64,000 bases of DNA. Source: Candidatus Omnitrophota bacterium. GTDB lineage: Bacteria; Omnitrophota; Gorgyraeia; Duberdicusellales; 4484-171. Shown in pieces: positions 13,476 through 30,524 of this stretch (within the stretch, counting starts at the first letter, position 1; every line of letters begins with the position of its first letter). The position numbers and the translations under genes are program-made. The stretch lies in NCBI GenBank assembly GCA_037146775.1, contig JBAWWL010000009.1:68575-132574 (forward strand), given 5' to 3'. Below the pieces are notes generated by a model. It searched no databases, was not told the origin of the DNA, and saw only the letters and a list, made by a program, of their open reading frames with translations.

Positions 13476-16400
13476 CTAAATAAGATAGACGTCAATACGC
13501 TCGATTTGGCGGTTACGCACAGCAATAGCTAAACTCGAGCTAACAGTATCGCCTTCTACAATATGATTCTTGCCGTCTTGAACAAGCACCACCCTGGACA
13601 CCTTACAACCATCCTTAAAGGTGTCTTTACGCTTAGGATTATGATAGACCACCAGGGTTGAAGAAAATAAATTAAAAGCGAAACAATTCTTATCAAGGGT
13701 TACCACTTTTTCCTTAAAGGTTATGGTTCTATCTTGGGTAGTAAAAAAATCCGCTTTCAGAGTAGGTGAAAATTTAATGTTAAGACTGTTGTCTTTCGCG
13801 ATAAAGAATGGCTCCTTGCCTAAACAGAGCAGCATCCAAATATTGAGGATCTCTACAGTTGCTCCGCTTAAGCGGGCAACAAAACCCTTACCCCATAAAC
13901 TCTTGTCAAGGTAAGCGCTACTGACAATGAAAGAAGAACTCTCCAAAGTATTTCTTCCGTACGTTTCAGGATCAAAGAAGCACACACAACAATTATGAAA
14001 ATCTTTGAAGAATTCTTCGTGGAGTCCGGTTTTAAGCATTTCCAGAAGATACTTATATTCCATATGCAGCCAAATCGACTCATTCTCAAGCCACCCTGGC
14101 ATAAAGATACGGCTCCTGCCTATCTCAAGCGGCTGGCTAGCCAAAGAAGCGTTCAAGCGGTACATCTTCAATTGCTCGTCAAAAAGCTCAGAAGTACGCA
14201 CGGCATGATACGTGCTGCGCTTTTTTTCTACACGCAAACAATGCACCGGGCCTTCTAAAAAATAAGGTAGCGGCGATTTCGTAAATTCTAAAGGCATCAG
14301 CTCCTTTTTCGTAAGATGATACTTCTTTACCTTATAAGTAAAATAGGCGTGGCAAAGGCCGTCACTACTATCTTTGGCTTTCTCGATACCAATAGTTAGT
14401 TTCGCCAACACATCCGCTAAAAAAGATTCAAGTTCCGCTAACTTTAATTCAGTGGTCACGCCGCTTATAGTAAAAAAAGTGCTGCGACGAAATTGCTCTT
14501 TTACGGTATTGGCTTTATCCCACCAGATAATGTCGCGGCTATTCTTTTCACTTATAAGATAATTTTTTAATAAAATCCGCAGGCGTTTAAAAAATAAAGC
14601 GTTCTCCTGAGCACAGGTCATCTTCTTCACGCCCTCTGCTTTTAAATGTGTGATTGCCTCCTGAAGCATAATACAGGCTCTTTTAAGCTCTAAGGTCTCG
14701 CACAAAGAAGAACCAAAAAGCGCAGGCAAACCGTTAAGCGAATCGCACCAGCCGGGCTTATCCGCCTCCATCTCAATGCCAATACCTTCGGGGTCAAGGG
14801 TAGCCAGTTTATTTAAAATTAAACTAAAAATTTTCTCCAAAAGTGTAGTTTTGTAAATCCTTCCTTTTTTATCGCGTAAAAAATTTCCGTTGCTGAGCCG
14901 TTTTTCTACTATCTCTTTCTTTTCAGCTACCTCCTCCACGCTATGCCACTGATAAACCGTATCGTCTTTTAAATGATACCGCCGTCTTCTTTCTTTTACC
15001 CGGTATTCGTCATCCCAAAAATAATATTCGCGGCTTTGATAAAGTTCGCGCAATTTGTCCGGATAGAAATAAAGATAATTTTCGATTAAATCCAAATTAT
15101 AACGCCAGTGGTCTATCCAGTAACCTTCGCCATGAGAAGCAAAAGGCTGACGGCTAGCCTCCTCTACTAGGCGTTTTACAAAAACTTCCTTGTCTTTAAC
15201 TTCCAGGCCTTCCTCCTTAAGCACTTTAAAACACTCTCCCAAGTGAAATCCGCTGGTCAAAAGATGTAGAAGCTTTTTATTGTTAATACGGAATTCCTTC
15301 AAGATTTTACCTGCAGTCTTGGATTTAAGAAACAATCTTTCGCCTTTAACCACCAAAGGATTATAGCCGTCAATTTTTATCAAATTAAGAAAATACACAA
15401 TGTTAGTTTTACCGATACGCGGATTAAAGAATAAATCTATCCTGCGGTTTTGGTTGATATCGCGGTAATTTGCCTCTCCTTCGCTAAAATAAGAAGGCGA
15501 TAGCTTAAATTTATTGTAGTCCCTCTCAAGGTCGCCATGCTTACGGGAAAAGATGTAGTAGATATGTTTGTCATCAAAGGTGTAGGGGTAGCCTCCACGA
15601 AGAACGTTATCCATATAAGAATTCTGCACGTATTCGTCAAACTCTTTATACCCGGAAACAACCAAAGCGTGATTTTTAAGTTTTGTAATTAAGCGCTCGT
15701 TCTCTTTTTCTTTATCTTGAATAAATTGGGCATCGATACCGGCAACAAAATCTTTAATCAGCTGTGACTTAAACGACGAGCCGAAAATACTGTAAAAGTC
15801 ACGGGTCTCGCCGGCAGATAACTTCCAGGAGAAATGGCTGAAAGCACACGGAGTTTTTCCGCAATCAATCTGGCTAAGAGGCACTTTAAAACCTTCTTCA
15901 TAAAAACGTACGGGAAAAGAAAATGAAGTGTCCTGGCCAAAGAGTGCGCTGGGGTCAACAATAAGATAAGGAGCAACTGTCTTACCTGCTTCGGGATAAA
16001 AGGCGTAATTAAAGTTAGCGCCATCAACATAACGAGTCTGGCTTGAATCTTTAGGGTCGACAATCAGACGAAAGGTGGCAAGTTTACCTTCCGCCTTAGA
16101 ATGCATCCACGCTTCAAGCGTACGCGCCAAGTCTTTAAGTAAAACGTGCGATAGACCAAACGGCACTATACGCGGGATGCCGTCAAGCACTTCAAGATCA
16201 ATATCTTTATCGGAAATATTTTTTATCGAAAGAATTCTCACGAGGCTGCCCACTGGTGTGGTAGGAAGCGTAAAATAACGCACACGAAAACTTAAACCAA
16301 GCTTATAATTTGTTTTTCTAATCTCGAAAGAATGGCTGCGAATTACCATTTCCTCTTCCCGCTCATAATCGGAAATGACCCTGAACGGTTCATAGGTTGT

Positions 16401-16667
16401 TTCGTGATTAATTTTTAAGAAGGTACGAAAACCCAGCAAAGGAGCTAAAGAATACGCTTTGTTAGCGGGAAAAAATTCAGCGATAGAATGATCCTTGTCT
16501 TTACTTCCAAAACTGATAATGCCTTGAGCGCGGTTTACGTAGAAAACCCACATTGGCACACCCCAGGCTCCGGAGACACCCGGAAGAAAGTTCGAGAAAG
16601 GATGTTTGCTGTTATAATTTTTTATAATAAAACTGCCGTCTTCCTGAAGCATATAGTCTTTATCCAT
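13476..16667 (-). CDS. Large (1063 aa) uncharacterised cytoplasmic protein. It may be a glycoside hydrolase/phosphorylase-like (COG3459/GH94-type) enzyme, but this is not confirmed.
   Basis: Long ORF with no signal peptide. Only a weak resemblance to six-hairpin glycosidase/phosphorylase-type proteins, so it is left unassigned. Confidence 0.4.
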   Translation of the reverse strand: MDKDYMLQEDGSFIIKNYNSKHPFSNFLPGVSGAWGVPMWVFYVNRAQGIISFGSKDKDHSIAEFFPANKAYSLAPLLGFRTFLKINHETTYEPFRVISDYEREEEMVIRSHSFEIRKTNYKLGLSFRVRYFTLPTTPVGSLVRILSIKNISDKDIDLEVLDGIPRIVPFGLSHVLLKDLARTLEAWMHSKAEGKLATFRLIVDPKDSSQTRYVDGANFNYAFYPEAGKTVAPYLIVDPSALFGQDTSFSFPVRFYEEGFKVPLSQIDCGKTPCAFSHFSWKLSAGETRDFYSIFGSSFKSQLIKDFVAGIDAQFIQDKEKENERLITKLKNHALVVSGYKEFDEYVQNSYMDNVLRGGYPYTFDDKHIYYIFSRKHGDLERDYNKFKLSPSYFSEGEANYRDINQNRRIDLFFNPRIGKTNIVYFLNLIKIDGYNPLVVKGERLFLKSKTAGKILKEFRINNKKLLHLLTSGFHLGECFKVLKEEGLEVKDKEVFVKRLVEEASRQPFASHGEGYWIDHWRYNLDLIENYLYFYPDKLRELYQSREYYFWDDEYRVKERRRRYHLKDDTVYQWHSVEEVAEKKEIVEKRLSNGNFLRDKKGRIYKTTLLEKIFSLILNKLATLDPEGIGIEMEADKPGWCDSLNGLPALFGSSLCETLELKRACIMLQEAITHLKAEGVKKMTCAQENALFFKRLRILLKNYLISEKNSRDIIWWDKANTVKEQFRRSTFFTISGVTTELKLAELESFLADVLAKLTIGIEKAKDSSDGLCHAYFTYKVKKYHLTKKELMPLEFTKSPLPYFLEGPVHCLRVEKKRSTYHAVRTSELFDEQLKMYRLNASLASQPLEIGRSRIFMPGWLENESIWLHMEYKYLLEMLKTGLHEEFFKDFHNCCVCFFDPETYGRNTLESSSFIVSSAYLDKSLWGKGFVARLSGATVEILNIWMLLCLGKEPFFIAKDNSLNIKFSPTLKADFFTTQDRTITFKEKVVTLDKNCFAFNLFSSTLVVYHNPKRKDTFKDGCKVSRVVLVQDGKNHIVEGDTVSSSLAIAVRNRQIERIDVYLI

Positions 16668-16691: not shown

Positions 16692-16853
16692 ATCAGAAGT
16701 CAGAGATCAGAGGTCAGAGATCAGAAATCAGAGGTCAGAGGTCAGAAGTCAGAGATCAGAGGTCAGAAGTTAGAGGTCAGACACCCTCTGTCTTCTGTCT
16801 TCTGTCGTCTGTCGTCTGTTCTCTGTCTTCTGTCATCTGTCTTCTGTCATCTG
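16692..16853. repeat. Heptanucleotide tandem array as an inverted pair: about 13 CAGAGGT-type units, then the spacer ACACCC, then about 10 TCTGTCT-type units
   Basis: This fills the whole intergenic region between 16667 and 16858. The left half is purine-rich and the right half pyrimidine-rich, at about 70% complementarity, giving an imperfect long hairpin or cruciform. Confidence 0.85.
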
Positions 16854-16857
16854 TTTA

Positions 16858-18218: not shown

Positions 18219-19127
18219 CTATGCTTTTACGAAAGGTTTTATGCGGAAGAACTGTTTGATCTTGGTTATTTTTATGGCCTTACGCAGTAACGCACCTTTT
18301 TCGAGCATCTGCTTTTCCCCCATCTCTACCAGCTCTTTTGCCCGGTCAAAATCTCCCCAGGGAAAACTTTCCAGGTCCGGAGAAAGAAGAAAATCTATCC
18401 CCATAAGACTATCTTCTATGATATGACGGTAACGTATTCTATCCGCTAAATTCATCACGTCCATGGCATTGCGCACTTGAGGAAAATGGTAGCCGGTACT
18501 TTCTAAGTTAATACCGATCACAAAGTCAACTTTTTCCCTGATCGCTTTACTGGGAACCGGCATAAGCACGCCGCCGTCAATGAGTAGTTTGTCTCCTATC
18601 TGTAGCGGTGGGAACAGGCCCGGATAGGCTGACGAAGCGAGAACGGCCTGATACAAGAGGCCGTCATTCACGCAGACGCTTTCTCCCTTCATAAGGTCTA
18701 CCGCGGTAGCGATAAAAGGAATTTTGCAGTCCGCAAAAGTAGCGTCTTCGAAAAAATGCCTAAATATTTTTAAGAAAGCTTTAAGATCGACCAGCGCGGG
18801 CAAAGCAATACGCAAATTCCAGATATAAAATTCTTTTAAAATACTGAAAGACTTTTCCAGAAATGCCGCTTTTTCTGCAATATTGGTCTGCGAAAAAGTA
18901 TTCTTTAGAATTGCCAGTTCCTTTTGGTGTTTTTGGAGAATAACAAAAATGTTCTCTTCTACGTAGCGGACATCGCCCTTAAGCGCATAGAGGCCTCCAA
19001 TAACCGCACCGATGGAAGTTCCCGAAACAATATGCACGGGTATTTCCATTTTCTCAAGCGCCCTTAAAACCCCAACATGGAAAAACCCTCTCGCTACTCC
19101 TCCGCCCAAAGCAAGGCCAATCTTCAT
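18219..19127 (-). CDS. Patatin-like phospholipase
   Basis: GGGVARG oxyanion motif and catalytic GTSIG. A DGG motif lies downstream. Confidence 0.8.
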   Translation of the reverse strand: MKIGLALGGGVARGFFHVGVLRALEKMEIPVHIVSGTSIGAVIGGLYALKGDVRYVEENIFVILQKHQKELAILKNTFSQTNIAEKAAFLEKSFSILKEFYIWNLRIALPALVDLKAFLKIFRHFFEDATFADCKIPFIATAVDLMKGESVCVNDGLLYQAVLASSAYPGLFPPLQIGDKLLIDGGVLMPVPSKAIREKVDFVIGINLESTGYHFPQVRNAMDVMNLADRIRYRHIIEDSLMGIDFLLSPDLESFPWGDFDRAKELVEMGEKQMLEKGALLRKAIKITKIKQFFRIKPFVKA

Positions 19128-19227
19128 CTATACTACCCCCTCACTCAACATTCCTGTGCATTAATTGACTGGAAACAAAAAAAAGGCAGACCCCTATAAA
19201 GGCCTGCCTCAAAAATTCACCGCTAAA

Positions 19228-19446
19228 CTATTCCTTAGCAACCGCAACAGTAATAATACCTACCAGAATTAAAAATAATCCGACACACCCCTTTACTATC
19301 ATCAGCAAGGGATGAATCCAGCGGATGACCGCAGCCAAGCCCAGGGCGACAAAAAGTAAACCCAAGACTATCTTACTCACCATTTTTACCGCGTCTGAAG
19401 ACTTTTTCCCTTCCGCCACGTTTTGAGTTTTTACCTCTTCTGCCAT
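19228..19446 (-). CDS. Small membrane protein
   Basis: 72 aa with two predicted TM helices and no known family. Confidence 0.35.
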   Translation of the reverse strand: MAEEVKTQNVAEGKKSSDAVKMVSKIVLGLLFVALGLAAVIRWIHPLLMIVKGCVGLFLILVGIITVAVAKE

Positions 19447-19523
19447 ACTACACCTCCTTAAGTATCGTTACCACTATTCTCTAAAATAATATATAATTTT
19501 GAAGCGTTTGTCAATACATCTCT

Positions 19524-20519
19524 CTATTTTCTTCTATTGGCTAAACGGACTATTTTTTCTATAGCCTTTTCGTAGGTATAACCTTTATGATAAGCCTGTT
19601 TCATGAACCCGCTATCCCTGTTGATGTCGGGATTGGGATTTATATCCAGTACATACAGCGCGCCCTGGCGTTCGCGCACATCTACCCTGAAATAACTCCG
19701 GCAACGCAAAGCAGCCGCTCCTCTTTGAGCTATCGCTATTATATTTTTTGTTACCTGGTTCTCTACCTCTACCACAGAAGGCGTTAACAGCTTGAATTCA
19801 TCGCAGTCAACCTCCCATTTAGAATCGTACGTTAAATAGGGCGGAAAATTTTGATATTGCGAATAGTCCATTACCGATACCCCCAACGGCCAGCAAAAGA
19901 GCCCGCCCAAAAAGGCAACGCTATATTCTTTGCCTCCTATAAATTCTTCCACCACCAGCCCTTGAGGGAACTCTTTTATCTTTTTCTCTACAACCCGACA
20001 AAGTTCTTCCTTGGTATACACCAAAGAATCTTTGTCGATACCCAGGCTCGCGTCTTCGTGGCAAGGCTTTACAAAAAAAGGTGCGCGCATATCCATGGCG
20101 TTCAGATCTTGCGGATTTTTTACAAAAAGCCCTCGAGGAACAGGTATGTTTTTCTTTTTTAAAATTTCCTTCGCTTTCCATTTACTAAGGCACAGGCTCA
20201 AGGTAAACGAAGAATTACCGGTAAAAGGGACTTTAATCTTTTCCAACAACCTGACAAATGCAGCTTCCTTCTCGGAATCGTCGCTAAAACCTTCAAAAAG
20301 ATTAAAAACACAATAAGGATTTATTGCTAAGATTTTCGCCGCGATATCTTCCTTTTCGGTAAAATCTTTTTTCTCTAAATAGAGCGTTTCGGTAGGCATG
20401 CCTTTCTTAAAAAAAACTTCCTCAACAGATGCTTTACAGCGTAAAATATCGCACACATCTTTTCTGGGTACTTCTTCCTTGTCTACCGCGATAAGTATTT
20501 TTTTATCTTTTCTCTTCAT
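19524..20519 (-). CDS. ATP-grasp ligase (D-Ala-D-Ala ligase-like)
   Basis: 331 aa. An N-terminal pre-ATP-grasp region is followed by an ATP-grasp fold (VVEEFIGGKEYSVAFLGG...YVLDINPNP). Confidence 0.65.
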   Translation of the reverse strand: MKRKDKKILIAVDKEEVPRKDVCDILRCKASVEEVFFKKGMPTETLYLEKKDFTEKEDIAAKILAINPYCVFNLFEGFSDDSEKEAAFVRLLEKIKVPFTGNSSFTLSLCLSKWKAKEILKKKNIPVPRGLFVKNPQDLNAMDMRAPFFVKPCHEDASLGIDKDSLVYTKEELCRVVEKKIKEFPQGLVVEEFIGGKEYSVAFLGGLFCWPLGVSVMDYSQYQNFPPYLTYDSKWEVDCDEFKLLTPSVVEVENQVTKNIIAIAQRGAAALRCRSYFRVDVRERQGALYVLDINPNPDINRDSGFMKQAYHKGYTYEKAIEKIVRLANRRK

Positions 20520-20525
20520 GGTTCA

Positions 20526-21896
20526 TCAAAGCTTAAGAATAACCCATGGCGCTACATGCACAGCAAAGATCCTACCCTTCAAAATAATTCTACTAAAAAT
20601 ATACTGGGGTTGCTTGAGTTCGGAAAGAGGAAACCTTATCACCAGCGTATGCCCACTGGCGCTTAACCGCGCCCCCTTTACATCGATACGCTTTCTCTTA
20701 TCATAGACAAACATAACGCTTCCCTTGGCTTTGAAAAAAATTTTCGGCATTGACGCAAAGTCTTTATCGTAACGATAGCCCATCAGATATATATCCGCCT
20801 TGATCTCCTGGGCCACTTCTTTATTCAACTCAATATTGATATACAAAAACTCGTCATCCTTATTATAATTAATTTCTGACACCAGCCGAGAATCAATTTT
20901 CAGAGAGCGCTTATACGATCCCTTCTGCAAATCGACGAAAGGGTAAAAACAGAGCAATTCGTTGCTTCTTACGAAACTTAAGAAATATGTCTGAGCAAAG
21001 CTCATCTGACTTTTATACAAGCTAATTGCCCGGCGTTTTTTTTCTACTTCTCCAGGCTTTAAAGGGACCTCTTCCCAGGCAATATCGCCTGTCATTAAAT
21101 CCACAGGCGGCTCTAAACCAGTTTGCGGCATGTATTTTCGAGGGTTCGGCCAACCCACTCTGTGGACAAGATAGGGATATACCGCAGGCTTGGGAATGGT
21201 TTTTTCTAAATCCCAGAGCGCAACACGCAGGTATACATAAAAACTGCGGTGGTCCGGATTCGTATCCTGGGGAGAAGATACAAATATTTTGGTCGGTTTA
21301 AAATCGGCTAAGACACTTTTGAGATCTTTCAAAATGCTCTCGCCCGTATACGGCGCACCGGGAGACAGTGCATCCTTGTAGGGCACACGGCTTATGCGCG
21401 TCAGCAAGCTGTTTAACGGATATTTAGGGTTCCAAAAACCCGTTAATATGGTTTCGGTAAACCTATCAGGATAACCCAAGTATGCAAGATCCGTCGGCGC
21501 TAAGCCGAAAAAAGCCATGGCATTCTTTGCTTCGCTGGCGCGGGTTTTACCTATCTCAATAAAACCGGCCTTAGAAAAAACCGGTATTTTTTTATAAAAC
21601 AAATAACTAAATTCGTTATAATCGCCATTGGTAAGATACGCGACTTTCAGCTTCGCTCCACAAGCGCGCGCATGCTGGATGATACCGGCGGCGGCAATGG
21701 CTTCGTCGTCAGGATGAGGCGCCAAAATCAAAACTCTGTCTTCGGGAGAAAATTCGAGGCGGGCAAAACAATTAGCAGCTACGCCAAAAAAAATAGCACA
21801 CGCAAATAAAATTCTCATCATCGTTTTTGCAACTGTCATGATTTTCATTATATACCAATGAGAGCAAGTAGCAAAGCGTAAAAAAACAAAAAACAT
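20526..21896 (-). CDS. PIG-L/LmbE-family N-acetylglucosaminyl deacetylase-like amidase with a C-terminal extra domain and an N-terminal signal/TM
   Basis: LILAPHPDDEAIAAAGII is the canonical LmbE/PIG-L zinc-site motif. The total 456 aa exceed a stand-alone LmbE domain. Confidence 0.7.
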   Translation of the reverse strand: MFFVFLRFATCSHWYIMKIMTVAKTMMRILFACAIFFGVAANCFARLEFSPEDRVLILAPHPDDEAIAAAGIIQHARACGAKLKVAYLTNGDYNEFSYLFYKKIPVFSKAGFIEIGKTRASEAKNAMAFFGLAPTDLAYLGYPDRFTETILTGFWNPKYPLNSLLTRISRVPYKDALSPGAPYTGESILKDLKSVLADFKPTKIFVSSPQDTNPDHRSFYVYLRVALWDLEKTIPKPAVYPYLVHRVGWPNPRKYMPQTGLEPPVDLMTGDIAWEEVPLKPGEVEKKRRAISLYKSQMSFAQTYFLSFVRSNELLCFYPFVDLQKGSYKRSLKIDSRLVSEINYNKDDEFLYINIELNKEVAQEIKADIYLMGYRYDKDFASMPKIFFKAKGSVMFVYDKRKRIDVKGARLSASGHTLVIRFPLSELKQPQYIFSRIILKGRIFAVHVAPWVILKL

Positions 21897-22059
21897 CGTT
21901 TTTTATTCGACGCCGAGAAAAGAGGTGCCCGTATCTGGAGAACAATTTTGTTGTCGGTATCCCGCCCACAAACCAAGACAACAGTGATTTCACGCAAAAA
22001 TACGCAACACACACACCAAACTCAACACTATATTGTTGTATCGAAGAAATAAAAGAAAG

Positions 22060-23079
22060 TTATCGAAGGACAAACCCGTAGCGCCGGAAAGCTTCCTGCA
22101 AAATAACTCGTATCAAAGAAGAATAGCTTCTCCCCTGCAATTTGCACATAATAGGCAGATCACTATACAAAGGCGAAAGGCCGGGCAAAGGATTAATATC
22201 AATGATGTGCGCAACGCCTTTACTGTTAAGCCGGAAATCAATACGTGCTATATCCCGCAGTTCTAAAACCGTAAAAGCGCGCATTGCAGTTTCGGCGACG
22301 GCACGCTTAAGGCCGGAGACGATAGAACTTTGCGGCTCATAAATAATTCTGGTTTTCCATTCCCTTTTATTTTCCTGCGAATAAAGAAAACATTTTGTCT
22401 CCTGCCGCGGCATAATACGCATCATTCCCAAAAGCCGCGGTTTACGATTGCCGCAGACCGCGACCGTGATCTCCGAGCCCTCCAAGAATTCCTCCACCAA
22501 TACCGGCTGTTTATACGCAGAAAAAATATGCTGTGCCTGTTTTCTGAATGCTTCAAACGAAGAAACAACAGAATGCAAAAAAATACCCTTAGAAGAGCCC
22601 TCCCAGCGCGGTTTCACGATATATAATTTTTTCTTGGCAAATAAAGATTTGAGGGAAACTGCCGCAGCAATGTTATTAATCGTATAAGCTAAGGGGACAG
22701 CTACGCCGGCGGCTTTCAGTATAAAACTGGTCAGATACTTGTCGAGGGCAACACCTAAAGAAATGGGGTCTGATCCTGAATAAGGTATACCAAGGCTCTC
22801 GAGAATTGAAGGTACTTGCGATTCTCTTGAACGTCCCGTGCCGATACCCTCGGCGATATTAAGGACAAAATCGGGGCGGACTTTAAGCAGGTGCTGACTA
22901 AGATTGTGGCCCTGTTCAATAAGAAGAGGGCTGAACCCCAACTTCTTTATTTCGCCAGCCAAGGCTTCAATGGTTTCGAACTCGTCGTATTCTTCGCAAC
23001 TGTCGTCCGCGGCACCTTTCTTCTTTAAGTTAAAAACAATACCTATGGTGCGCGGAAACAAATATTTTGCTGCCTGCAA
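22060..23079 (-). CDS. ATP-grasp ligase, Ddl family-like
   Basis: SLGIPYSGSDPISLGVALDKYLTSFILKAAGVAVP matches the central Ddl region. A C-terminal HIIDINPLPGLSP motif follows. Confidence 0.7.
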   Translation of the reverse strand: MQAAKYLFPRTIGIVFNLKKKGAADDSCEEYDEFETIEALAGEIKKLGFSPLLIEQGHNLSQHLLKVRPDFVLNIAEGIGTGRSRESQVPSILESLGIPYSGSDPISLGVALDKYLTSFILKAAGVAVPLAYTINNIAAAVSLKSLFAKKKLYIVKPRWEGSSKGIFLHSVVSSFEAFRKQAQHIFSAYKQPVLVEEFLEGSEITVAVCGNRKPRLLGMMRIMPRQETKCFLYSQENKREWKTRIIYEPQSSIVSGLKRAVAETAMRAFTVLELRDIARIDFRLNSKGVAHIIDINPLPGLSPLYSDLPIMCKLQGRSYSSLIRVILQEAFRRYGFVLR

Positions 23080-23088
23080 AGTTTATCC

Positions 23089-24276
23089 TTACTCTTTTGG
23101 GTTATAATAAAAGAATGACTCGTTTTTATAATTTCTTAATGTCAATCCTTCCGCAGATACAGAGAGAACATAATTAGGATCAATGGGAATTTTACCCTTA
23201 CCATCAATGCCATCCACGACAAACCTAGGAATACACATGCCGCCGGTATGCCCGCGCATGCGTTCCATAAGATCCATCCCCTTCCATATCGAAGTACGGA
23301 AATGATGCGCGCCCACCACCGGGTCACATTGGTACAGATAATATGGCCTTACCTGTATGTGCTGCAAACCATGACATAATTCTTGCATAACATTAGCCTC
23401 GTCATTAATCCCTTTTAAAAGCACCGACTGATTACTTATCGGAATACCACAGCGCTGCAATTTACGGCAAGCGGCCGTGGACTGGGCGGTTATTTCCCGA
23501 GGATGATTAAACTGGGTATTGACCCAAAGATGTTCGTATTTTCCCAGCACCTTACACAAGTTATCGTCTATGCGTTGAGGCATAACCACAGGAGCTCTGG
23601 TGCCAATACGAACCGCCTGAATGGTTTCTATCTGCGCAATAGATGAAAGAATGTAGTCAATTTTTTCCGTCGGAAGTGTAAGCGGATCCCCACCGGAGAC
23701 GATCACCTCGCGAATCTGTTTATTTTCGCGCACATATGTCAAAGCCAAATCAATATCTTTAAGGGTTGGTTCGGGGATACGGCTGCGCCACAAGCGCTTT
23801 CTCGTACAGTGGCGGCAATACATGAAACAACGCCCTGTAACCAGCAACAAAGCCCTATCGGGGTAACGATGCACCAGGCAAGGCGCAGGAGACGTCTTTT
23901 CTTCTCCTAACGGATCGATCTTTTCATGAATTTCGCCGCGGATTTCTTCTACAGACGGGATACACTGCTGGCGTATAGGGTCATGCGAATCGGTAAGGTC
24001 TTTTGCTAAAGAAAGATAATAAAGCGGAATGCGCATATGGAACGTACGCATTACCTGTTTGAGGAACGGCTTTTCTTCTTCGTTAATAAAAATGAATTTA
24101 GAAAGGTCGTCTATATTCTTGAGGGAATTTCTGTAGGCGGTAAGCCAATTCTCCTCGGCTGCAAGCGCATTACATCCTCCGGGCTCCTCCTTGTTCTGAG
24201 AATCCTCTTCCAAAGAATGCATAAATCTCTTTTGGTCAGCCATTCGTTTACCCCTCCTAAAAAAAATCCCCCTCAT
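23089..24276 (-). CDS. KamA-family radical SAM protein (lysine 2,3-aminomutase-like)
   Basis: CFMYCRHCTRK (CxxxCxxC radical SAM cluster), VSGGDPL, and the KamA-type layout of the N-terminal half. Confidence 0.8.
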   Translation of the reverse strand: MRGIFFRRGKRMADQKRFMHSLEEDSQNKEEPGGCNALAAEENWLTAYRNSLKNIDDLSKFIFINEEEKPFLKQVMRTFHMRIPLYYLSLAKDLTDSHDPIRQQCIPSVEEIRGEIHEKIDPLGEEKTSPAPCLVHRYPDRALLLVTGRCFMYCRHCTRKRLWRSRIPEPTLKDIDLALTYVRENKQIREVIVSGGDPLTLPTEKIDYILSSIAQIETIQAVRIGTRAPVVMPQRIDDNLCKVLGKYEHLWVNTQFNHPREITAQSTAACRKLQRCGIPISNQSVLLKGINDEANVMQELCHGLQHIQVRPYYLYQCDPVVGAHHFRTSIWKGMDLMERMRGHTGGMCIPRFVVDGIDGKGKIPIDPNYVLSVSAEGLTLRNYKNESFFYYNPKE

Positions 24277-24322
24277 TATCTCGTGGTGAGAGGGATTTTT
24301 TCATTCTATACTACCAGCGGCT

Positions 24323-24856
24323 TCACTTACTTTTAGCCGGAGCTTCAATGGCAGAAGGAACTACGCCTTCCGTCACGCTAGGCATTGTCGATTCCTCTTC
24401 GAAAATATAATTATAGCTTTTTGCTTTTAAGCCTGTTTCCGTCTTATCGGTGATCACCTCAACGTTATCGCCGACCTCAAGATACGAATCCTCTAAAAAT
24501 TCTTTCGTAGTAATCACTTTGGTATTATCAATCGTAATATAGCTGCCATCTTCGGCAATCTCCTTAACAATACCCTTGATGACTTCTTCTTTGACCGGCT
24601 GAACCGTTGCCTGCGATACCTCGGCTTTTCCGGGCTGCTGTAACGGTGCCTCAACCGGCGGCGTGGCTGTAGATGTTGGTTGTTGTCCAGCTTGCACGGG
24701 CTGTTCTTTTGACGGTGCAGCTTGAACTGGTTGCTGGGAAACATCTTTTGTAACTGCAGTAGCCGCCTTCTCTACTGTGGCGTTTTGAGCAAACCCCGCC
24801 ACGCACAAAACACATACAAGAACAGAAAACATAAACAAAAATCTTCCTGCAATCAT
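24323..24856 (-). CDS. Secreted Pro/Gln/Thr-rich protein. The start is taken at MIAGRFLF, which heads a signal peptide.
   Basis: Signal peptide MIAGRFLFMFSVLVCVLCVAGFA. A low-complexity PQ-rich linker is followed by a small globular C-terminal domain. Confidence 0.45.
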   Translation of the reverse strand: MIAGRFLFMFSVLVCVLCVAGFAQNATVEKAATAVTKDVSQQPVQAAPSKEQPVQAGQQPTSTATPPVEAPLQQPGKAEVSQATVQPVKEEVIKGIVKEIAEDGSYITIDNTKVITTKEFLEDSYLEVGDNVEVITDKTETGLKAKSYNYIFEEESTMPSVTEGVVPSAIEAPAKSK

Positions 24857-24869
24857 TTTTTCCTCCTCC

Positions 24870-25076
24870 TTAGAATTCTTCTCCGCCCTCATCTGCATCC
24901 AAATCATCTTCCTGCTGCACAGACTCGACGACTTCTACCTGTGGCGGTTCAAGCCGAACAATCTTCACCTCTGCATCACAGCTTAAACAAAAAATAGTAT
25001 CACCTGCTTCCAGATATTCTTCCAACTCAATCTCTTCCGCACACTCCGGACATTTCACTATCTTTGTTTTTGCCAT
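24870..25076 (-). CDS. LysW-like zinc-ribbon protein with an acidic C-terminal tail (candidate amino-group carrier protein)
   Basis: 68 aa. CPECAEEIELEE...TIFCLSCDAEVKIV matches the LysW/ArgW zinc-ribbon pattern. The acidic tail EDDLDADEGGEEF follows. Confidence 0.5.
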   Translation of the reverse strand: MAKTKIVKCPECAEEIELEEYLEAGDTIFCLSCDAEVKIVRLEPPQVEVVESVQQEDDLDADEGGEEF

Positions 25077-25113: not shown

Positions 25114-25299
25114 CTAAATAGCCCCTTCCTTCTTTAACTCTTTTTCTGCCTCAAACCAGTTATCCGCGCCATTGCCGGTGGGCCTGCCTTTATGTATCCA
25201 AATATAATAAGCCCGTTCATTAATTTTTTGTAAAACATGTGCCGGATACTTTGCCTGAGGATTTTTTTCCTGCGGTTTTGTGATCTTTTTTAGCGCCAT
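25114..25299 (-). CDS. DUF2934-like small protein. The start is taken at MALKK.
   Basis: ...ERAYYIWIHKGRPTGNGADNWFEAEKEL matches the DUF2934 signature. Confidence 0.5.
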   Translation of the reverse strand: MALKKITKPQEKNPQAKYPAHVLQKINERAYYIWIHKGRPTGNGADNWFEAEKELKKEGAI

Positions 25300-25428
25300 A
25301 GCTACTCCTTTTTTAAAATATTGTTTCAGAGAATACACTCAATTAAAATATACTCAAAAAAATCTCTTTGTCAATACTTTTCAGATTATAAACAAACATT
25401 TTTGGGTGTTTAAACAGGCGGAAGGATA

Positions 25429-25719: not shown

Positions 25720-25745
25720 ATTAACCTCACTCCGTTTGGCAGAAA

Positions 25746-25913
25746 TCAGACGTCAGAGGTCAGAGATCAGAGATCAGAAAAAAAAGAAATAAGAATATTC
25801 TGCCTTCTGGCTTCTGGCTTCTGTCATCTGACCTCTATTTTTTGTCCTCTGCCTTCTGATCTCTGTCATCTGTCCTCTGTTCTCTGACCTCTGTCCTCTG
25901 TCTTCTGTTCTGA
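25746..25913. repeat. Heptanucleotide tandem array as an inverted pair (CAGAGGT-type units, A-rich spacer, then TCTGNCY units), flanked by inverted GGCAGAA/TTCTGCC
   Basis: Same family as the array at 16692-16853. The right half extends into the 3' end of the RND ORF. Confidence 0.85.
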
Positions 25914-28900
25914 TGAAACACCGCATACACCGTAGGAACAAATATCATAGTAATTAAGGTGGACACCGATAATCCGCCAACCATGGTAACACCTATAGGC
26001 TGCCACGTCTCTGAACCCTCACCGTTAGAAAGAGCCAAAGGCAGTAACCCCGCCAAGGTGGTAATGGTGGTCATCAAAACTGGCCGCAACCTATCCTTGC
26101 CACCAAGAGTAACTGCTTCATGCATCGACAAACCTCTGGCACGTAATATTTGGATATAGCTCACCAGAACAATAGCATTATTAACTACAATACCCATTAG
26201 CATAACCACACCTAAATAGCTGATTACATTTAAGGTTACGGGTTCAGGAAAAATGAATTTGAGAAAAGGCAATTGCGTAGCCAAGAAGCCTAAAATTACT
26301 CCCGTAAAAGTAAAAGGAATCGAAAACATGATAATGAAAGGATCAAGCAAAGATTCAAACTGCGCCGCCATCACCATATATACCAAACAGGTACCCAGAA
26401 TTAAAAGCAAGAAAAGGTCCCTGAATGCTTTTCTCTGTTCATCGGCCTCACCCCCAAAATTCACCATAATGTCAGCGGGTAAAGTTATTTTTGAAAATTC
26501 TTTTTTAAGGTCATCGACAATTTCTCCGGAAGAACGTTTATAGGTGTTGCATTCCACCCGTACTATCCTTTCACGATTCTGGCGTTCAATCTCTATGGGC
26601 CCGAGGCTTTCATATATTTTTGCAATATTCGATAGTTGAACCGGCCTTCTTAGACTGCCCCCCTTTAAAGTAATGACATCCTGTAACGGAGTAAATGTTT
26701 TTATGTCTTCCGGTAAAGGCGAAATAATCGGTAAATTCCCGATATCTTCCAGCTTCGAACGAGACGGTTCATCAAGCCGGACATAAATATCGTAGGTTTC
26801 CCCCTTCTCTCTATATTTGGTAGCGGAAGAGCCCTCGATAAATGTTTTTAGGTTACTCGCAATAGTGTACATATCCAGGCTTAGCATGGCTGCTTTTTCT
26901 CGATCAACTTCTATCTTAATTTCCGGCCGGTTTTCATCACGAGAAATAGCCGCATCGACGGTCCCGGGTATTTTTTCCATAATTGCTTTTATTTTTTGTG
27001 CTATCAAATCCGTATCCGCAAAAGAATGCCCAATTATTTCAACCTGTATGGCTTTACCGCTGGTTCCAGTAATTAACCTGCCTATAGGATTGCCGGTAGA
27101 AATGTCTGCCTTGATAACACCGGGAATGTTTCTTATTTTGTTACGTACTGCCTGGCCTACTTCTTTTACGGATCGCTTCCTTTTCTCTTTAGGTACAAGC
27201 TTTGCCCCCGAAGTGACAACATGTGTTCCTGAAGCGTTACCCATGCTTCTTCCTATGCCACTTACTTGTCCGCTTCTTACATAATAAAACCTTGCTTCAG
27301 ACACATCAGCTTTTAAAATTTCCTCTATCCGCTTCGCAACCTTGTCTGTTTCTTCCAACCGCGTTCCCACGGGAAGACTAACCGTAATGCGCAAATCTCC
27401 GGAATCTTCTTCCGGAATAAATTCACTGCCGACGAAACGGGCTAAAAATAAACTCGCGATAAAAGCGGCGAGAAAGCCAAGAAGCACTATTTTTTTATGC
27501 CGTAATGCCCAACCAAGAACGCGCGCATAATAATCTTCCCACGACTGAAACATTTTTTCCGAAATCTCATAAATCTTCTCTTTCCACACCCTCAATCTCT
27601 GCCACCTGCCCCCTGCCTTCTGTCCTCTGACCTCTGTCCTCTGATCCCTCCCCATCCACTTCGAACAAAGCATGGGGCTAAAAGTGGCGGCGGTAAAAAG
27701 AGAAGCGAGCAATGTTACGGTTACAATAATTGCCAGCTCCCCAAACATGATACCTACTACTCCGGGAATAAACAGCATCGGTAAAAATACAACGACGGTA
27801 GTAAATGTTGAAGCAGATATGGATAAAAACATCTCGGAAGTTCCAAAGATTGCCGCCTCGGTGGGCCGGTTACCTCTTTGTAAGCGCCGATAAACATTAT
27901 CCACCACTACAATCGCATTATCTACCACCATACCGGTAGCAATAGCGATAGAAGAAAGACTAATAGTATTTATAGTTTTACCGCTTAAAAAAAGATAAAT
28001 AAAGCTGATAAGTAACGAAAAAGGAATGGTCAAGACGATGATCATACTGGGAGCGAATTGGCGCAAGAAAAACCAAACTACAACGATTACCAAAACTATC
28101 GCTATCCAAAGAGAAGATTTTAAAGATTCTAGTGAATTTATAATATCCTGGGAGGTATCAAAAATAATATTCATTTTAACATCAGCAGGAAGGTTCGTTT
28201 CTAACTCTTTCAGTCTTTTCTTAACGCGATTAGCTACCTCTACGGCGTTGGTTCCGCTTTGTTTTTGCACCATCATAATTATTCCGCGCTCTTGTTTAAT
28301 ACGCACCAGGCTGGTTACTTCTTTAAAACTGTCTTCCACTCTCGCTATATCTTTCAGATAAATAGGTTTGCCATTACGCTTACCTAAAATAACTAAGTTT
28401 ATTTCTTCGGGAGTGGCAAACTCTCCGGGTAATCTTATCAAATAATCGGTAAGGCCGGTTTTAAGGCTGCCTACGGGTTGGGTAATATTTTCTCTTTTTA
28501 AAGCTTCCTGGATGTCCAAGATAGAAAACGCATAACCCTCCAGGCGCTGACGATCTACCCAAATATTGATTTGCCGCTCCAACCCCCCGCCCTGTAACTG
28601 CACGGTACCTACCCCGGGAAGTTGGCGGAGAGCATCACCGATGTTTTTATCCATAAGATCATACAGATCGGGATAGGTTTGTTTTGCGGTCACGCCTATG
28701 GCTAAAATTGGAATATCTGCGGTATTAAATTTATGAATAAAAGGATTGTCCATTTCATCAGGAATATCGGGCAAATTCCTTTTGGCAAGTTCAATGCGGT
28801 CGCGGATATCATTAGAGGCTTCATCTAAATTAGTTCCCCAGATAAATTTAAGGGTGACGATCGAGAAACCTTCCGAAGAACGGGAAGTAATTTTTTCTAA

Positions 28901-29128
28901 ACCGGGAGTAGTACCCAGGCGATTTTCCAGTTCTTGTGTTACTTTCACCTCCACGTCCTCAGGGCTTGCGCCGGGATAAGTTGAGATAACCGTTATCGAG
29001 GGCGGCTCAATTTCAGGCATCATATCTATACCAAGGCGGGTAAGGCTGTAAAAAGCAAGAATAAGAATGGAAGAAAAGATCATTAAGTTAGTGACGGGCT
29101 TTTTTACGCCAAATTCGGGTAGATGCAT
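25835..29128 (-). CDS. RND-family efflux permease (AcrB/CzcA-like). The last roughly 25 codons are encoded by the heptamer repeat array.
   Basis: 1097 aa with a 12-TM RND pattern and two large periplasmic loops. The N-terminus MHLPEFGVKKPVTNLMIFSSILILAFYSLTRLGIDMMPEIEPPSITVISTYPGASPE is canonical. The C-terminal tail QNRRQRTEVREQRTDDRDQKAEDKK is low-complexity and repeat-derived. Confidence 0.85.
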   Translation of the reverse strand: MHLPEFGVKKPVTNLMIFSSILILAFYSLTRLGIDMMPEIEPPSITVISTYPGASPEDVEVKVTQELENRLGTTPGLEKITSRSSEGFSIVTLKFIWGTNLDEASNDIRDRIELAKRNLPDIPDEMDNPFIHKFNTADIPILAIGVTAKQTYPDLYDLMDKNIGDALRQLPGVGTVQLQGGGLERQINIWVDRQRLEGYAFSILDIQEALKRENITQPVGSLKTGLTDYLIRLPGEFATPEEINLVILGKRNGKPIYLKDIARVEDSFKEVTSLVRIKQERGIIMMVQKQSGTNAVEVANRVKKRLKELETNLPADVKMNIIFDTSQDIINSLESLKSSLWIAIVLVIVVVWFFLRQFAPSMIIVLTIPFSLLISFIYLFLSGKTINTISLSSIAIATGMVVDNAIVVVDNVYRRLQRGNRPTEAAIFGTSEMFLSISASTFTTVVVFLPMLFIPGVVGIMFGELAIIVTVTLLASLFTAATFSPMLCSKWMGRDQRTEVRGQKAGGRWQRLRVWKEKIYEISEKMFQSWEDYYARVLGWALRHKKIVLLGFLAAFIASLFLARFVGSEFIPEEDSGDLRITVSLPVGTRLEETDKVAKRIEEILKADVSEARFYYVRSGQVSGIGRSMGNASGTHVVTSGAKLVPKEKRKRSVKEVGQAVRNKIRNIPGVIKADISTGNPIGRLITGTSGKAIQVEIIGHSFADTDLIAQKIKAIMEKIPGTVDAAISRDENRPEIKIEVDREKAAMLSLDMYTIASNLKTFIEGSSATKYREKGETYDIYVRLDEPSRSKLEDIGNLPIISPLPEDIKTFTPLQDVITLKGGSLRRPVQLSNIAKIYESLGPIEIERQNRERIVRVECNTYKRSSGEIVDDLKKEFSKITLPADIMVNFGGEADEQRKAFRDLFLLLILGTCLVYMVMAAQFESLLDPFIIMFSIPFTFTGVILGFLATQLPFLKFIFPEPVTLNVISYLGVVMLMGIVVNNAIVLVSYIQILRARGLSMHEAVTLGGKDRLRPVLMTTITTLAGLLPLALSNGEGSETWQPIGVTMVGGLSVSTLITMIFVPTVYAVFHQNRRQRTEVREQRTDDRDQKAEDKK
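27601..27650. repeat. Short heptamer-array fragment (CCTTCTGTCCTCTGACCTCTGTCCTCTGA) embedded in the RND coding sequence
   Basis: Same repeat family. It encodes an ...EVRGQKAGGRWQRLRV insertion in a periplasmic/cytoplasmic loop. Confidence 0.7.
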
Positions 29129-29137
29129 TGTTTCCTC

Positions 29138-29557
29138 TTAGTTACATTCCCCATGCGGAAGCATGGGGTCTTGCTCCTTTTTCTGATTACGTATATATCG
29201 CCTAACCTTTTCTATTTCTATTTTTTGTACCTGCCGATAGCCGTACCTAGTTGCCCAAAAAGCTTTTCCTTTCTCCACAGGCTTCCGCCTGTGGTATCTG
29301 CATTTCCCTTGCAAACAAAGACCCAAATGTATTTCTCTTGAAGAAACACTTTTTAGAGTTCTCACAACCGCAGATAGTTCTTCTTTAGTATTAACCTCTA
29401 CCAACAAATGCACGTGGTCTTTATTTGTTTCGTACTCTAATACTTTATATTTATGCCTTTGTATGCATTCTGCAAAAATATCCTTAATAGCTCGTTCCAT
29501 CCCATCCTGTAGTATTGGTTTTCTATATTTAGTCACAAACCAAACATGGCAATGCAT
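29138..29557 (-). mobile_element. tnpA: IS200/IS605-family Y1 (HUH) transposase TnpA. It is possibly a domesticated RAYT-like copy; only 9 bp separate it from the RND start.
   Basis: 139 aa. MHCHVWFVTKYRKPIL...DHVHLLVEV carries the HUH motif, with a downstream Tyr. It is flanked on one side by the heptamer array at 29557-29640. No room for a full IS end before the RND start. Confidence 0.8.
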
Positions 29558-29640
29558 CGCTCTGTCCTCTGACCTCTGCCCTCTGTCATCTGCCCTCTGT
29601 CATCTGCCCTCTGTCATCTGTCCTCTGTCTTCCGTCTCTT
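29557..29640. repeat. Heptamer tandem array (TCTGTCCTCTGACCTCTGCCCTCTGTCATCTG...) directly abutting the tnpA start. It also encodes the C-terminal tail of the adaptor protein.
   Basis: Same TCTGNCY family. It translates as ...EETEDRGQMTEGR at the end of ORF 29600..30577. Confidence 0.8.
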
Positions 29641-30508
29641 CCTCAACAACTACTTCCGCTCCCTCGCGTAGACGTTGCTGACCCATAATAACGACAAGAT
29701 CTCCTTCTTGTAACCCCTCGGTTACCTCATAATAGGGACCTTGACGGATACCTAAAGCAATCTTCTTTAATACTGCTTTCTTGTTCTCAATTGTAAACAC
29801 ATACAAATCCGGATATCTGCCTATAATCGCCTCTTTTAAAATAACCAGCGCCTTTTTATGTTCCTGCAAAACCAAGTTAACCCGGGCAAACATTCCTGAC
29901 TGGAGTTTATGCTCATAATTATCCACAGTAATCTCTATCGGCGCAGCACGGGTGCCTAAATCTACAACCGGGCTAATCTTGGTGATTTTTCCGACGAACT
30001 GTTCTGTGGAATATGCATCAACGCTTATGTTTGCACTCTGGCCTAATGAAATCTTGGATAAATATTTTTCAGGAATTTCTACCCCTATCTTTACTCTATC
30101 CATGCTCACCACCAAAGCGATCGCAGTCTGAGTATTCACATTAGTACCTATATCCACATACACTCTGCCTATTCTACCGCTTAAGGTACTTTCTACGGGC
30201 GCTTTCTCAAACTTTAAGCCCACCTCATCGCGATCAATGTAAGCGATTACCTCTCCTTTGTTAATTACGGCACCGTCTTCTTTCAGTTTTTCAATAATTT
30301 TACCGCTTACCTTAGGATAAATAGCGACTTCGTCTTCTGCTTTGATATTACCGACATATTCAAGGATGCTCGCCACATTCTTGAATGTGACTCTATATAC
30401 TTTCACCGGTATCGATTGCAAAGCTTCGTCTTTCTTTGCCCCTTGCGTCGAGCAAGCGCTCATAAACAATATGGCCATAGAAATTATTGCGATATTATTT
30501 TTTTTCAT
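29600..30508 (-). CDS. RND efflux periplasmic adaptor (membrane fusion protein), lipoprotein. The start is taken at MKKNNIAIISMAILFMSAC.
   Basis: Lipobox LFMSAC, a biotinyl/lipoyl-like half-barrel and beta-barrel HlyD-like pattern. Lies between tolC and the RND gene. Confidence 0.8.
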   Translation of the reverse strand: MKKNNIAIISMAILFMSACSTQGAKKDEALQSIPVKVYRVTFKNVASILEYVGNIKAEDEVAIYPKVSGKIIEKLKEDGAVINKGEVIAYIDRDEVGLKFEKAPVESTLSGRIGRVYVDIGTNVNTQTAIALVVSMDRVKIGVEIPEKYLSKISLGQSANISVDAYSTEQFVGKITKISPVVDLGTRAAPIEITVDNYEHKLQSGMFARVNLVLQEHKKALVILKEAIIGRYPDLYVFTIENKKAVLKKIALGIRQGPYYEVTEGLQEGDLVVIMGQQRLREGAEVVVEEETEDRGQMTEGR

Positions 30509-30524
30509 GTTATGTAAAAACATC

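Follow-up and report, generated by a model that had tools for sequence, protein, structure and literature searches.

Amino-group carrier proteins (AmCP) of the LysW kind are represented by the LysW-LysX-LysZ-LysY-LysJ-LysK systems of Thermus, Sulfolobus and Thermococcus and by the AmCP clusters of Streptomyces, and the attachment site on LysW is taken here to be the gamma-carboxyl of the terminal Glu in an EDWGE-type tail. Protection by an acetyl group and protection by LysW are established alternatives in arginine and lysine biosynthesis. A LysW-like protein of 68 amino acids (aa), hereafter LysWl, is encoded next to a KamA-type radical-SAM aminomutase and two ATP-grasp ligases (AG1 and AG2) in a 64,000-nucleotide stretch of a Candidatus Omnitrophota genome (assembly GCA_037146775.1, contig JBAWWL010000009.1, positions 68,575 to 132,574 of the forward strand), which as a whole is called the window. 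The genes form a real, conserved and apparently undescribed set, probably for beta-lysine ligation, to which a LysW-family protein is specifically attached in Omnitrophota. That the whole is a lineage-specific version of a widespread beta-lysine ligation cluster is a reading for and against which we find the balance even. An earlier note on this DNA had listed the cluster genes as co-directional, and all were found on the minus strand, at or near the coordinates listed there. The genes that matter most to the argument are the following.

24870..25076, minus strand: LysWl, 68-aa LysW-like zinc ribbon (PF21344, 27.9 bits)
24323..24856, minus strand: secPQ, 177-aa secreted P/Q-rich protein, its start placed after the ribosome-binding site AAGGAGGAGG
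23089..24243, minus strand: KamA, 384-aa radical-SAM, PLP-dependent lysine 2,3-aminomutase (TIGR00238), its ATG following AGGAGGGG; the open reading frame (ORF) could begin at 24276
22060..23079, minus strand: AG1, Ddl-fold ATP-grasp ligase, matching the Ddl family only, net charge +13
20526..21839, minus strand: LmbE/PIG-L zinc amidase or deacetylase (PF02585, 76.9 bits); the ORF could begin as early as 21896
19524..20519, minus strand: AG2, second Ddl-fold ATP-grasp ligase (PF07478, 66 bits), net charge +6

With its ribosome-binding site upstream, 24856 is the true start of secPQ, not 24907; for KamA a start at 24243 is most likely.

KamA passed the cut-off of TIGR00238 with 312 bits against 199 and aligned to the lysine 2,3-aminomutase (LAM) of Clostridium subterminale (2a5h) at 361 bits. 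With the AblA equivalog model TIGR03820 it reached 440 bits against a cut-off of 525; the orthologue of Aminobacterium, from a cluster of the same kind, scored 611. Equivalents of C125, C129 and C132 (the CxxxCxxC motif), R134, D293, D330 and K337 (2a5h numbering) are retained, and all seven positions are invariant in the 75 cluster-linked KamA proteins (75/75). We take D293 and D330 of LAM to hold the epsilon-ammonium group of lysine and to be replaced in glutamate 2,3-aminomutase, K337 to be the lysine that binds pyridoxal phosphate, and R134 to be the arginine that binds the carboxylate. Since the lysine-binding residues are kept, KamA would act on free L-lysine and yield beta-lysine, a prediction from sequence that is well supported. 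It differs from the clostridial enzyme in lacking the C-terminal domain and the structural zinc site (C268, C375, C377 and C380): a Glu takes the place of C268, and the chain stops short of the C-terminal cysteines.

In sequence and in fold, AG1 and AG2 matched Ddl and VanA best, and AG1 keeps the ATP/Mg motifs of Ddl (KP..GSS.G, R.D and [ED].N..PG) as well as the Ddl fold. Their best scores with Ddl models (134 and 113 bits; cut-off 243) lie far under every Ddl equivalog and subfamily cut-off, and at the N-terminus, which is not alignable to Ddl, a motif FNLK...EEYD replaces the GG.S.E.EVS of Ddl. AG2 is a paralogue of AG1 with 24% identity (BLASTP E 1e-21). Some databases label AG1 orthologues 'D-alanine--D-alanine ligase', and a few of these orthologues have weak matches to the TTL family of Pfam. 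The fold and the catalytic motifs are shared with Ddl and with the L-amino acid ligases (BacD/YwfE, BL00235, RizA and TabS), from which AG1 and AG2 are set apart by scores below the family cut-offs, the other N-terminal motif and a conserved context of KamA and GNAT acetyltransferase genes in place of cell-wall or known antibiotic genes. By analogy with these enzymes the default expectation would be small-molecule dipeptide formation via an acyl-phosphate. The family assignments of the earlier note were thus borne out for the aminomutase, for ligases of Ddl type rather than RimK/LysX type (profile and fold searches agree), and likewise for the LmbE/PIG-L protein and a patatin-like phospholipase further downstream (PF02585 at 76.9 and PF01734 at 110 bits).

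To place the cluster among other genomes, one genome per species was scanned, which gave at least 119 relatives of AG1; the best 80 loci (AG1 46-61% identical) were analysed. Loci from this and the other scans are cited below by L numbers. In a sequence search AG1 orthologues ran to hundreds at 50-76% identity. The recurrent unit of the 80 loci is KamA-AG1-AG2 followed by a RimI-like GNAT of 155 aa, and the KamA-AG1(-AG2) core is present in Omnitrophota, Synergistota and Thermodesulfobacteriota. KamA lies immediately upstream of AG1 in nearly all loci of Omnitrophota. Synergistota have the order AG1-AG2-GNAT-KamA, or KamA a few kb off, sometimes with a 580-aa GNAT-HDAC fusion or an MFS transporter added; Thermodesulfobacteriota show two forms, AG1-AG2-GNAT without KamA (L022) and KamA-AG1-AG2-GNAT (L046), and Elusimicrobia have AG1-AG2-GNAT without KamA. 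KamA and AG1 form one ORF of ~725-730 aa in 12 loci (L013, L015, L017, L019, L023, L028, L032, L037, L044, L088, L092 and L115), and two of these KamA::AG1 fusions were called as single genes by independent gene callers, with Radical_SAM, LAM_C and Dala_Dala_lig_C domains. AG2 follows AG1 in most loci and is missing in minimal ones such as L092, L023, L030, L036 and L038. As AG2 and GNAT are both missing from some loci, KamA and AG1 constitute the minimal pair. The form found in the window (LmbE between AG1 and AG2, no GNAT, then a small membrane protein called TM72, patatin, BioY and HAD) is restricted to a single small clade of the AG1 tree; no GNAT was found within the 64-kb window, and one locus of this kind, L105, has both LmbE and GNAT. 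The gene arrangement recurs in dozens of genomes and is far from chance.

The 580-aa GNAT-HDAC proteins (L003 11919-13661; also L021, L029, L058 and L080) are encoded beside KamA-AG1-AG2-GNAT. They combine an N-terminal GNAT-like region, with a ...TGRGIG... motif, and a histone-deacetylase-family domain, and have neither a signal peptide nor an NCBIfam name.

LysWl matched PF21344 (Zn_ribbon_LysW) with 27.9 bits against a gathering score of 27, and its closest PDB matches were true LysW proteins, 3wwl of Thermus (E 7.6e-6) and 5k2m of Thermococcus (E 2.4e-4), aligned over residues 7-55. The alignment spans both CxxC knuckles and the L-D/E-P motif. The protein consists of a CPxC...CxxC zinc ribbon, an L-E/D-P-P motif and an acidic tail of ~20 residues with an internal D-L/F/Y/W-D. 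In the subfamily alignment the tails keep this internal acidic-aromatic/hydrophobic-acidic motif, reminiscent of EDWGE, and most members end in F, Y or W, the others in various residues. Judged by its sequence, LysWl is a genuine LysW-family homologue, as the earlier note had supposed for a 68-aa zinc ribbon. The family is small (195 matches at E <= 1e-3 and four at E <= 1e-10 in a representative library). There are also two LysW-like ribbon genes in tandem (L020 17678-18161) and, in the same library, proteins with 2-4 ribbons per chain (P0245, P0259, P0299 and others).

Its usual companion secPQ has a signal peptide, a P/Q-rich linker and a conserved, beta-rich domain of ~60 aa, for which only sub-threshold DUF5666 and S1 matches were obtained. 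Of the 37 non-identical LysWl genes listed from other loci, 28 are followed by secPQ, as is that of the window. In L108 (7641-8051) and L109 (2120-2515) homologues of the secPQ domain stand alone, with neither LysWl nor KamA, immediately ahead of pyrR-pyrB-pyrC-like genes. When the acidic tails of the LysWl and secPQ orthologues of L005-L023 and L088-L106 were compared, both ended very often in an aromatic residue (-EEF, -DEY and -DKW in LysWl; -QEY, -QGY, -DSY and -LEW in secPQ). The secPQ of the window, which ends in -AKSK, is an exception.

The linkage of LysWl to the cluster was examined from two sides. With AG1 as the anchor, LysWl was present in 18 of ~45 loci of Omnitrophota and in none of ~37 loci of other phyla; a search with a hidden Markov model (HMM) brought no additional copies to light, either in the 80 AG1-anchored loci or in Synergistota, Elusimicrobia or Thermodesulfobacteriota. 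For the reciprocal test LysWl itself, and secPQ in metagenomes, served as anchors, which yielded 38 non-identical LysWl genes including that of the window. Twenty-eight of these lie within 1 kb of kamA (<=1 kb) and six more within ~8 kb, three at 1-7 kb and three at 7-8 kb. For two the contig ends too early to decide, and the two lowest-scoring ones are orphans, flanked for 8 kb in either direction by unrelated genes. The position of LysWl relative to the core varies: it is found upstream together with secPQ, upstream without secPQ (L016 and L028), directly after GNAT (L024 and L044), and 4-6 kb from the cluster beside other ligases (L020, L027 and L041). Its linkage is therefore more than inherited gene order. 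Minimal loci reduce to ArsR-LysWl-secPQ-KamA::AG1 (L092), or to this set with an S66 LD-carboxypeptidase-like gene (L023). The earlier note had asked for conservation of the small protein beside kamA and ATP-grasp genes in relatives, and this was found from either anchor.

Several genes occur in LysWl-positive loci only. A divergent ATP-grasp of 330-369 aa without a Pfam match (AG3) is encoded in three of them (L089 11835-12944; L027 4664-5689, minus strand; L013 12650-13642), usually beside an S66 peptidase; its best matches, all weak, are LysX_arch (NCBIfam E 1.8e-6) and ArgX 3vpb (PDB profile E 0.011), and also RimK. Genes for S66 carboxypeptidase-like proteins adjoin LysWl in L020, L023, L027 and L089, accompanied in two loci by a PurD-like ATP-grasp. 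None of the AG3, S66 and PurD-like genes was found in the 64-kb window. Among the evaluable loci of Omnitrophota, LysWl and GNAT are both present in eight, LysWl alone in seven (11 with four further loci), GNAT alone in 18 and neither in two. Clusters without GNAT are thus nearly always LysWl-positive (Fisher p 0.02 to 0.002, uncorrected for shared ancestry).

The LmbE protein of the window scored below the BshB and MshB cut-offs. Its metal motifs PHPDDE and NPDH (PDH) are invariant in six orthologues, and it carries a ~220-aa C-terminal domain without an assigned fold; a single-sequence AlphaFold2 model had a pLDDT of 37, too low for use. Only the window's clade has LmbE, with its gene placed between those of AG1 and AG2. 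In every orthologue the N-terminus is basic and is followed by a hydrophobic stretch of 15-20 residues, not conserved in sequence, and a cleavage motif of small residues. Because this is a predicted Sec-type signal peptide, LmbE should be exported and could not release a cytoplasmic conjugate.

The region had been described as a tight operon with gaps of a few bp. This holds for three junctions only, LysWl-secPQ (13 bp), KamA-AG1 (9 bp) and LmbE-AG2 (6 bp); the other gaps from LysWl to patatin amount to 77 bp or more and several contain transcription signals, among them a hairpin after secPQ and a strong terminator ahead of patatin. The scans for promoters and terminators report consensus matches only. 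The remaining features of the region are as follows.

25347..25374, minus strand: strong promoter-like site TTGACA-16-TATATT, 11/12 consensus, ahead of the DUF2934, LysWl and secPQ genes; consensus match only
25114..25299, minus strand: DUF2934 small protein, 61 aa (PF11154, 40 bits), its ATG preceded by the ribosome-binding site AAAGGAG
24256..24303, minus strand: terminator-like hairpin with U8, between secPQ and kamA, from RNA folding
19486-19514: promoter-like site TTGACA-17-TATTAT of TM72; consensus match only
19228..19446, minus strand: TM72, 72-aa two-helix membrane protein without a significant family match
19183..19210, minus strand: intrinsic-terminator-like hairpin, a 12-bp stem then a T-run, between TM72 and patatin
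18219..19127, minus strand: patatin-like phospholipase (PF01734, 110 bits)
downstream of patatin, minus strand: BioY, then HAD, as placed by neighbourhood comparison

The DUF2934 gene is the first of the small-protein unit in the window's clade, and it also stands upstream of LysWl in L001, L005, L009-L012, L016, L095-L101, L105 and L106. Between secPQ and kamA the gap is 79 bp and contains the hairpin, which has an A-run, a G+C-rich core stem of 9 bp and a U8 (-24.5 kcal/mol, z -2.65 in RNA folding); a simple terminator scan had overlooked it because the loop exceeds 8 nt. An equivalent hairpin with a T-run comes right after the secPQ stop in eight loci (L005, L009, L010, L011, L012, L015, L019 and L023). 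The hairpin of the window may be a leaky terminator. The AG1-LmbE gap is at least 163 bp, the AG2-TM72 gap 77 bp with a promoter-like site, and the TM72-patatin gap 100 bp with the 12-bp-stem terminator. No riboswitch or leader was found in the region with Rfam. On these signals the region consists of three or four units and is not one tight operon.

TM72 was found only with LmbE-type clusters (L005, L010-L012, L040, L095, L096, L100, L101 and L106), and patatin is absent from all clusters of the GNAT type and of the fusion type. Patatin, BioY and HAD were rejected as pathway members: they lie behind the terminator and are syntenic in the closest clade only. For these reasons patatin and BioY, whose membership the earlier note had left possible, are not regarded as components, and patatin is probably not part of the pathway. 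A PADLOC search gave no defence-system match except a generic one to patatin.

The described systems were compared with the cluster one by one. Its likeness to the LysW/AmCP systems lies in the same CPxC...CxxC domain, the L-D/E-P motif and the acidic-aromatic-acidic tail motif, in the position of LysWl beside ATP-grasp ligases, and, in three related loci, in an adjoining LysX/RimK-like ATP-grasp and carboxypeptidase-type hydrolase. It differs in that the LysWl tail exceeds that of LysW by 10-20 residues and has, as a rule, F, Y or W in place of Glu at its end, that the ligases of the window are of Ddl type, that the partner enzyme is a radical-SAM aminomutase and that the hydrolase LmbE is predicted to be exported; neither a LysX/ArgX-type ATP-grasp nor LysZ/Y/J-type enzymes nor a matching releasing hydrolase was found in the 64-kb window. 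The cluster resembles a hybrid of several systems, combining the AblA step of acetyl-beta-lysine synthesis with Ddl-type L-amino-acid ligases and perhaps with tail ligation of the LysW/LysX or RimK kind, and in logic it is like PylB-PylC; it has no PylD, however, its ligases number two, AG1 matches Ddl much better than PylC, and PylB is a methylornithine synthase and not a 2,3-aminomutase. RimK acting on S6 and the tubulin tyrosine ligases (TTL, TTLL) are ATP-grasp enzymes that attach amino acids to acidic C-terminal protein tails, to which the -GEEF end of LysWl is similar, whereas AG1 and AG2 are of Ddl type, the donor would be beta-lysine and not Glu or Tyr, and modification of the LysWl tail is hypothetical here. 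Beta-lysylation of EF-P by EpmAB was rejected, as KamA scored 242 with the EpmB model against a cut-off of 369 and no EpmA was found. Because defining features of each of the ablAB, yodT-kamA, lysine-fermentation, EpmAB, Ddl and canonical LysW pathways were looked for and not found, the cluster falls outside all of them. In searches of full-text literature no description of the cluster was found; the amidoligase survey of Iyer et al. (2009), which lay outside this coverage, might mention the neighbourhood. The earlier note, which had likewise recognised no described pathway, had named two outcomes as fatal to its proposal, a small protein without a LysW match or conserved neighbours, and a match to a characterised pathway. 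What was found instead is a PF21344 match with conserved adjacency, and no matching pathway.

Taken together, these results are consistent with the following scheme. KamA would make beta-lysine from free L-lysine, the step that the sequence supports well. AG1 would form an amide bond with beta-lysine via an acyl-phosphate, as its invariant adjacency to KamA, the KamA::AG1 fusions and the intact catalytic motifs suggest. AG2 would add a second amide bond, and the product may be a small beta-lysine peptide or conjugate, possibly an oligomer. In most lineages the RimI-like GNAT may N-acetylate the product or a precursor, sometimes with cytoplasmic GNAT-HDAC or S66 hydrolases; in the window's clade, which has no GNAT at the locus, the exported LmbE and the two-helix membrane protein would instead act extracytoplasmically. 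In Omnitrophota the acidic tail of LysWl would be the carboxylate partner, activated by AG1 or AG2, or by AG3 where present, and then joined in an amide to an amino group of beta-lysine, in the way that LysX loads LysW. This amidation may protect an amine in place of acetylation, or prime the growth of a peptide. With the LysWl and secPQ genes ahead of a leaky terminator, the substrate protein would be made in excess over the enzymes; such an arrangement may be what the hairpin reflects, being typical for a substrate gene ahead of its enzymes. The covalent role of LysWl as carboxylate partner of beta-lysine in Omnitrophota is the least certain step and is proposed tentatively, as rather less than probable. 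More doubtful still is the wider view that LysWl is a protein acceptor for beta-lysine outside lysine and arginine biosynthesis, loaded by Ddl-fold ligases, or by a LysX-like ligase where there is one, whether in place of N-acetyl protection or to prime a beta-lysine peptide that is cleaved later.

A number of observations weigh against this scheme. LysWl stays far under the LysW equivalog cut-offs (TIGR01206, 27.5 against 53.2; NF041070, 19.1 against 75), and in the window its tail ends in ...DLDADEGGEEF and not in the terminal Glu of an EDWGE-type tail. Even with the HMM search, the core lacks LysWl in Synergistota, Thermodesulfobacteriota, Elusimicrobia and more than half of the loci of Omnitrophota; LysWl therefore cannot be a general substrate. 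Its partnership with a secreted protein fits poorly with a cytoplasmic carrier, and the exported LmbE has no explained role. No kinase, reductase or aminotransferase for a tethered intermediate is present, so that a carrier in the LysW sense would have no obvious job. In the window's clade both ligases, AG1 and AG2, are strongly basic (+8 to +30); charge complementarity with LysWl is not relied on as support, since the link between charge and LysWl across Omnitrophota is weak and clade-bound (p 0.04, uncorrected) and the AG1 proteins of the fusion clade are acidic despite LysWl. LysWl and secPQ resemble a separate unit that has a promoter-like site and a terminator to itself, and the hairpin may equally mark the end of an independent LysWl-secPQ transcript. 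ArsR-type co-regulation alone could explain why LysWl adjoins the cluster. Finally, every step has been deduced from sequence and context.

These points leave room for other explanations. The earlier note had favoured a full amino-group-carrier pathway, in which an ATP-grasp loads lysine or beta-lysine on the LysWl tail, the tethered intermediate is processed and LmbE releases the product. Part of this has held: LysWl is a genuine LysW homologue and is tightly linked to KamA-AG1, the LysX-like AG3 and an S66 carboxypeptidase accompany it in some loci, and the loss of GNAT, being largely confined to LysWl-positive loci, parallels the acetyl/LysW alternative of arginine and lysine biosynthesis. 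The remainder has not. With a predicted signal peptide in all orthologues, LmbE is in the wrong compartment to act as the releasing amidase of a cytoplasmic carrier; enzymes that would modify a tail-bound substrate are lacking; KamA, which requires the alpha-amino group to be free and retains the residues that bind a free epsilon-ammonium, would act on free lysine; and the tail ends in Phe, while three phyla have the core without LysWl. The carrier interpretation is possible, is not the best-supported reading as it was stated, and appears improbable to us. A stronger competitor, unlikely in our view but to be reckoned with, is that LysWl, secPQ and DUF2934 form an independent unit, chemically unlinked to the cluster and brought beside it by a shared ArsR-type regulator or a shared stress; as a variant, the acidic tails might serve as a buffer or immunity factor by holding a cation, or a polycationic beta-lysine product, without a covalent bond. 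The promoter-like site and the conserved terminator-like hairpin fit such a unit, as does an ArsR/SmtB regulator gene, which precedes LysWl or, in loci without LysWl, stands immediately ahead of kamA. So do the predicted export of secPQ and its stand-alone homologues, the frequent F, Y or W at the end of both acidic tails, and the two loci (L020 and L041) in which the LysWl unit lies 5-6 kb from the cluster beside CorA. It is less easily reconciled with LysWl genes placed directly after GNAT, or before kamA without secPQ (L016, L024, L028 and L044), with the restriction of AG3, S66 and the PurD-like ligases to LysWl-positive loci, or with the sole biochemistry known for the LysW family, which is covalent loading by an ATP-grasp.

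Two further possibilities concern the enzymes themselves. KamA comes closest to the AblA model, it has all lysine-binding residues, many relatives carry an acetyltransferase beside it, and Synergistota are amino-acid fermenters, which together would suit an ablAB-like route to the osmolyte N-epsilon-acetyl-beta-lysine, or a catabolic locus of the lysine-fermentation or yodT-kamA type. The ablAB route was rejected for want of an AblB-type acetyltransferase: the window lacks a GNAT, and the 155-aa GNATs of related clusters match RimI and AAC(6') models only and not AblB. Lysine fermentation and yodT-kamA were rejected in the absence of kamDE, kdd, kce, kal and yod genes. Two conserved ATP-grasps, one of them fused to KamA, would moreover have no role in any of these, and we regard this whole group of explanations as very improbable. 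Hardly credible at all is the proposal that AG1 and AG2 are ordinary cell-wall D-Ala-D-Ala ligases in a coincidental gene order. It agrees with their top matches and with some database names; it conflicts with scores far under the Ddl cut-off, with the different N-terminal substrate motif, and with the conservation of two paralogues together with KamA and GNAT across phyla, including the KamA::AG1 fusions.

The beta-lysine ligation reading, if correct, would have several consequences. The cluster occurs in at least 119 species-level genomes of Omnitrophota, Synergistota and Thermodesulfobacteriota, including those of cultivable Synergistota such as Aminobacterium, and no assigned function or product was found for it. 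The KamA::ATP-grasp fusions suggest that lysine is turned directly into a beta-lysine amide or peptide, with no non-ribosomal peptide synthetase involved. Such a route would bring with it a new class of ATP-grasp beta-amino-acid ligases of use in biocatalysis. If LysWl is covalently involved, the concept of the amino-group carrier protein would have to be widened to a new chemistry and to ligases of a new type, and a second example of an evolutionary swap between an acetyl and a protein protecting group would be at hand. An acceptor role of LysWl would amount to a new kind of carrier- or scaffold-dependent beta-amino-acid pathway in an uncultivated phylum.

Some elements around the cluster were noted in passing. 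Downstream of HAD a 1063-aa protein without a Pfam match is encoded at 13476-16667 (minus strand) of the window, and it is syntenic at this place in related Omnitrophota. A 7-nt unit (TCAGAGG, or the pyrimidine-rich TCTGTCC/CTCTGTC) is repeated in tandem, up to 12.7 times, at 16693-16854, 25740-25908, 27619-27643 and 29560-29644. Two of these arrays flank the block from HAD to PG0541 that contains the KamA cluster; one extends into the 3' end of an RND pump gene, where it encodes a low-complexity tail (RTEVR.Q), and one adjoins an IS200-like transposase gene. This gene, for an IS200/IS605-type Y1 transposase (29138-29557, minus strand), is located between the genes for an HlyD-type adaptor (29600-30577) and the RND pump (25835-29128) of an efflux operon of the order MarR-OEP-HlyD-RND-PG0541.

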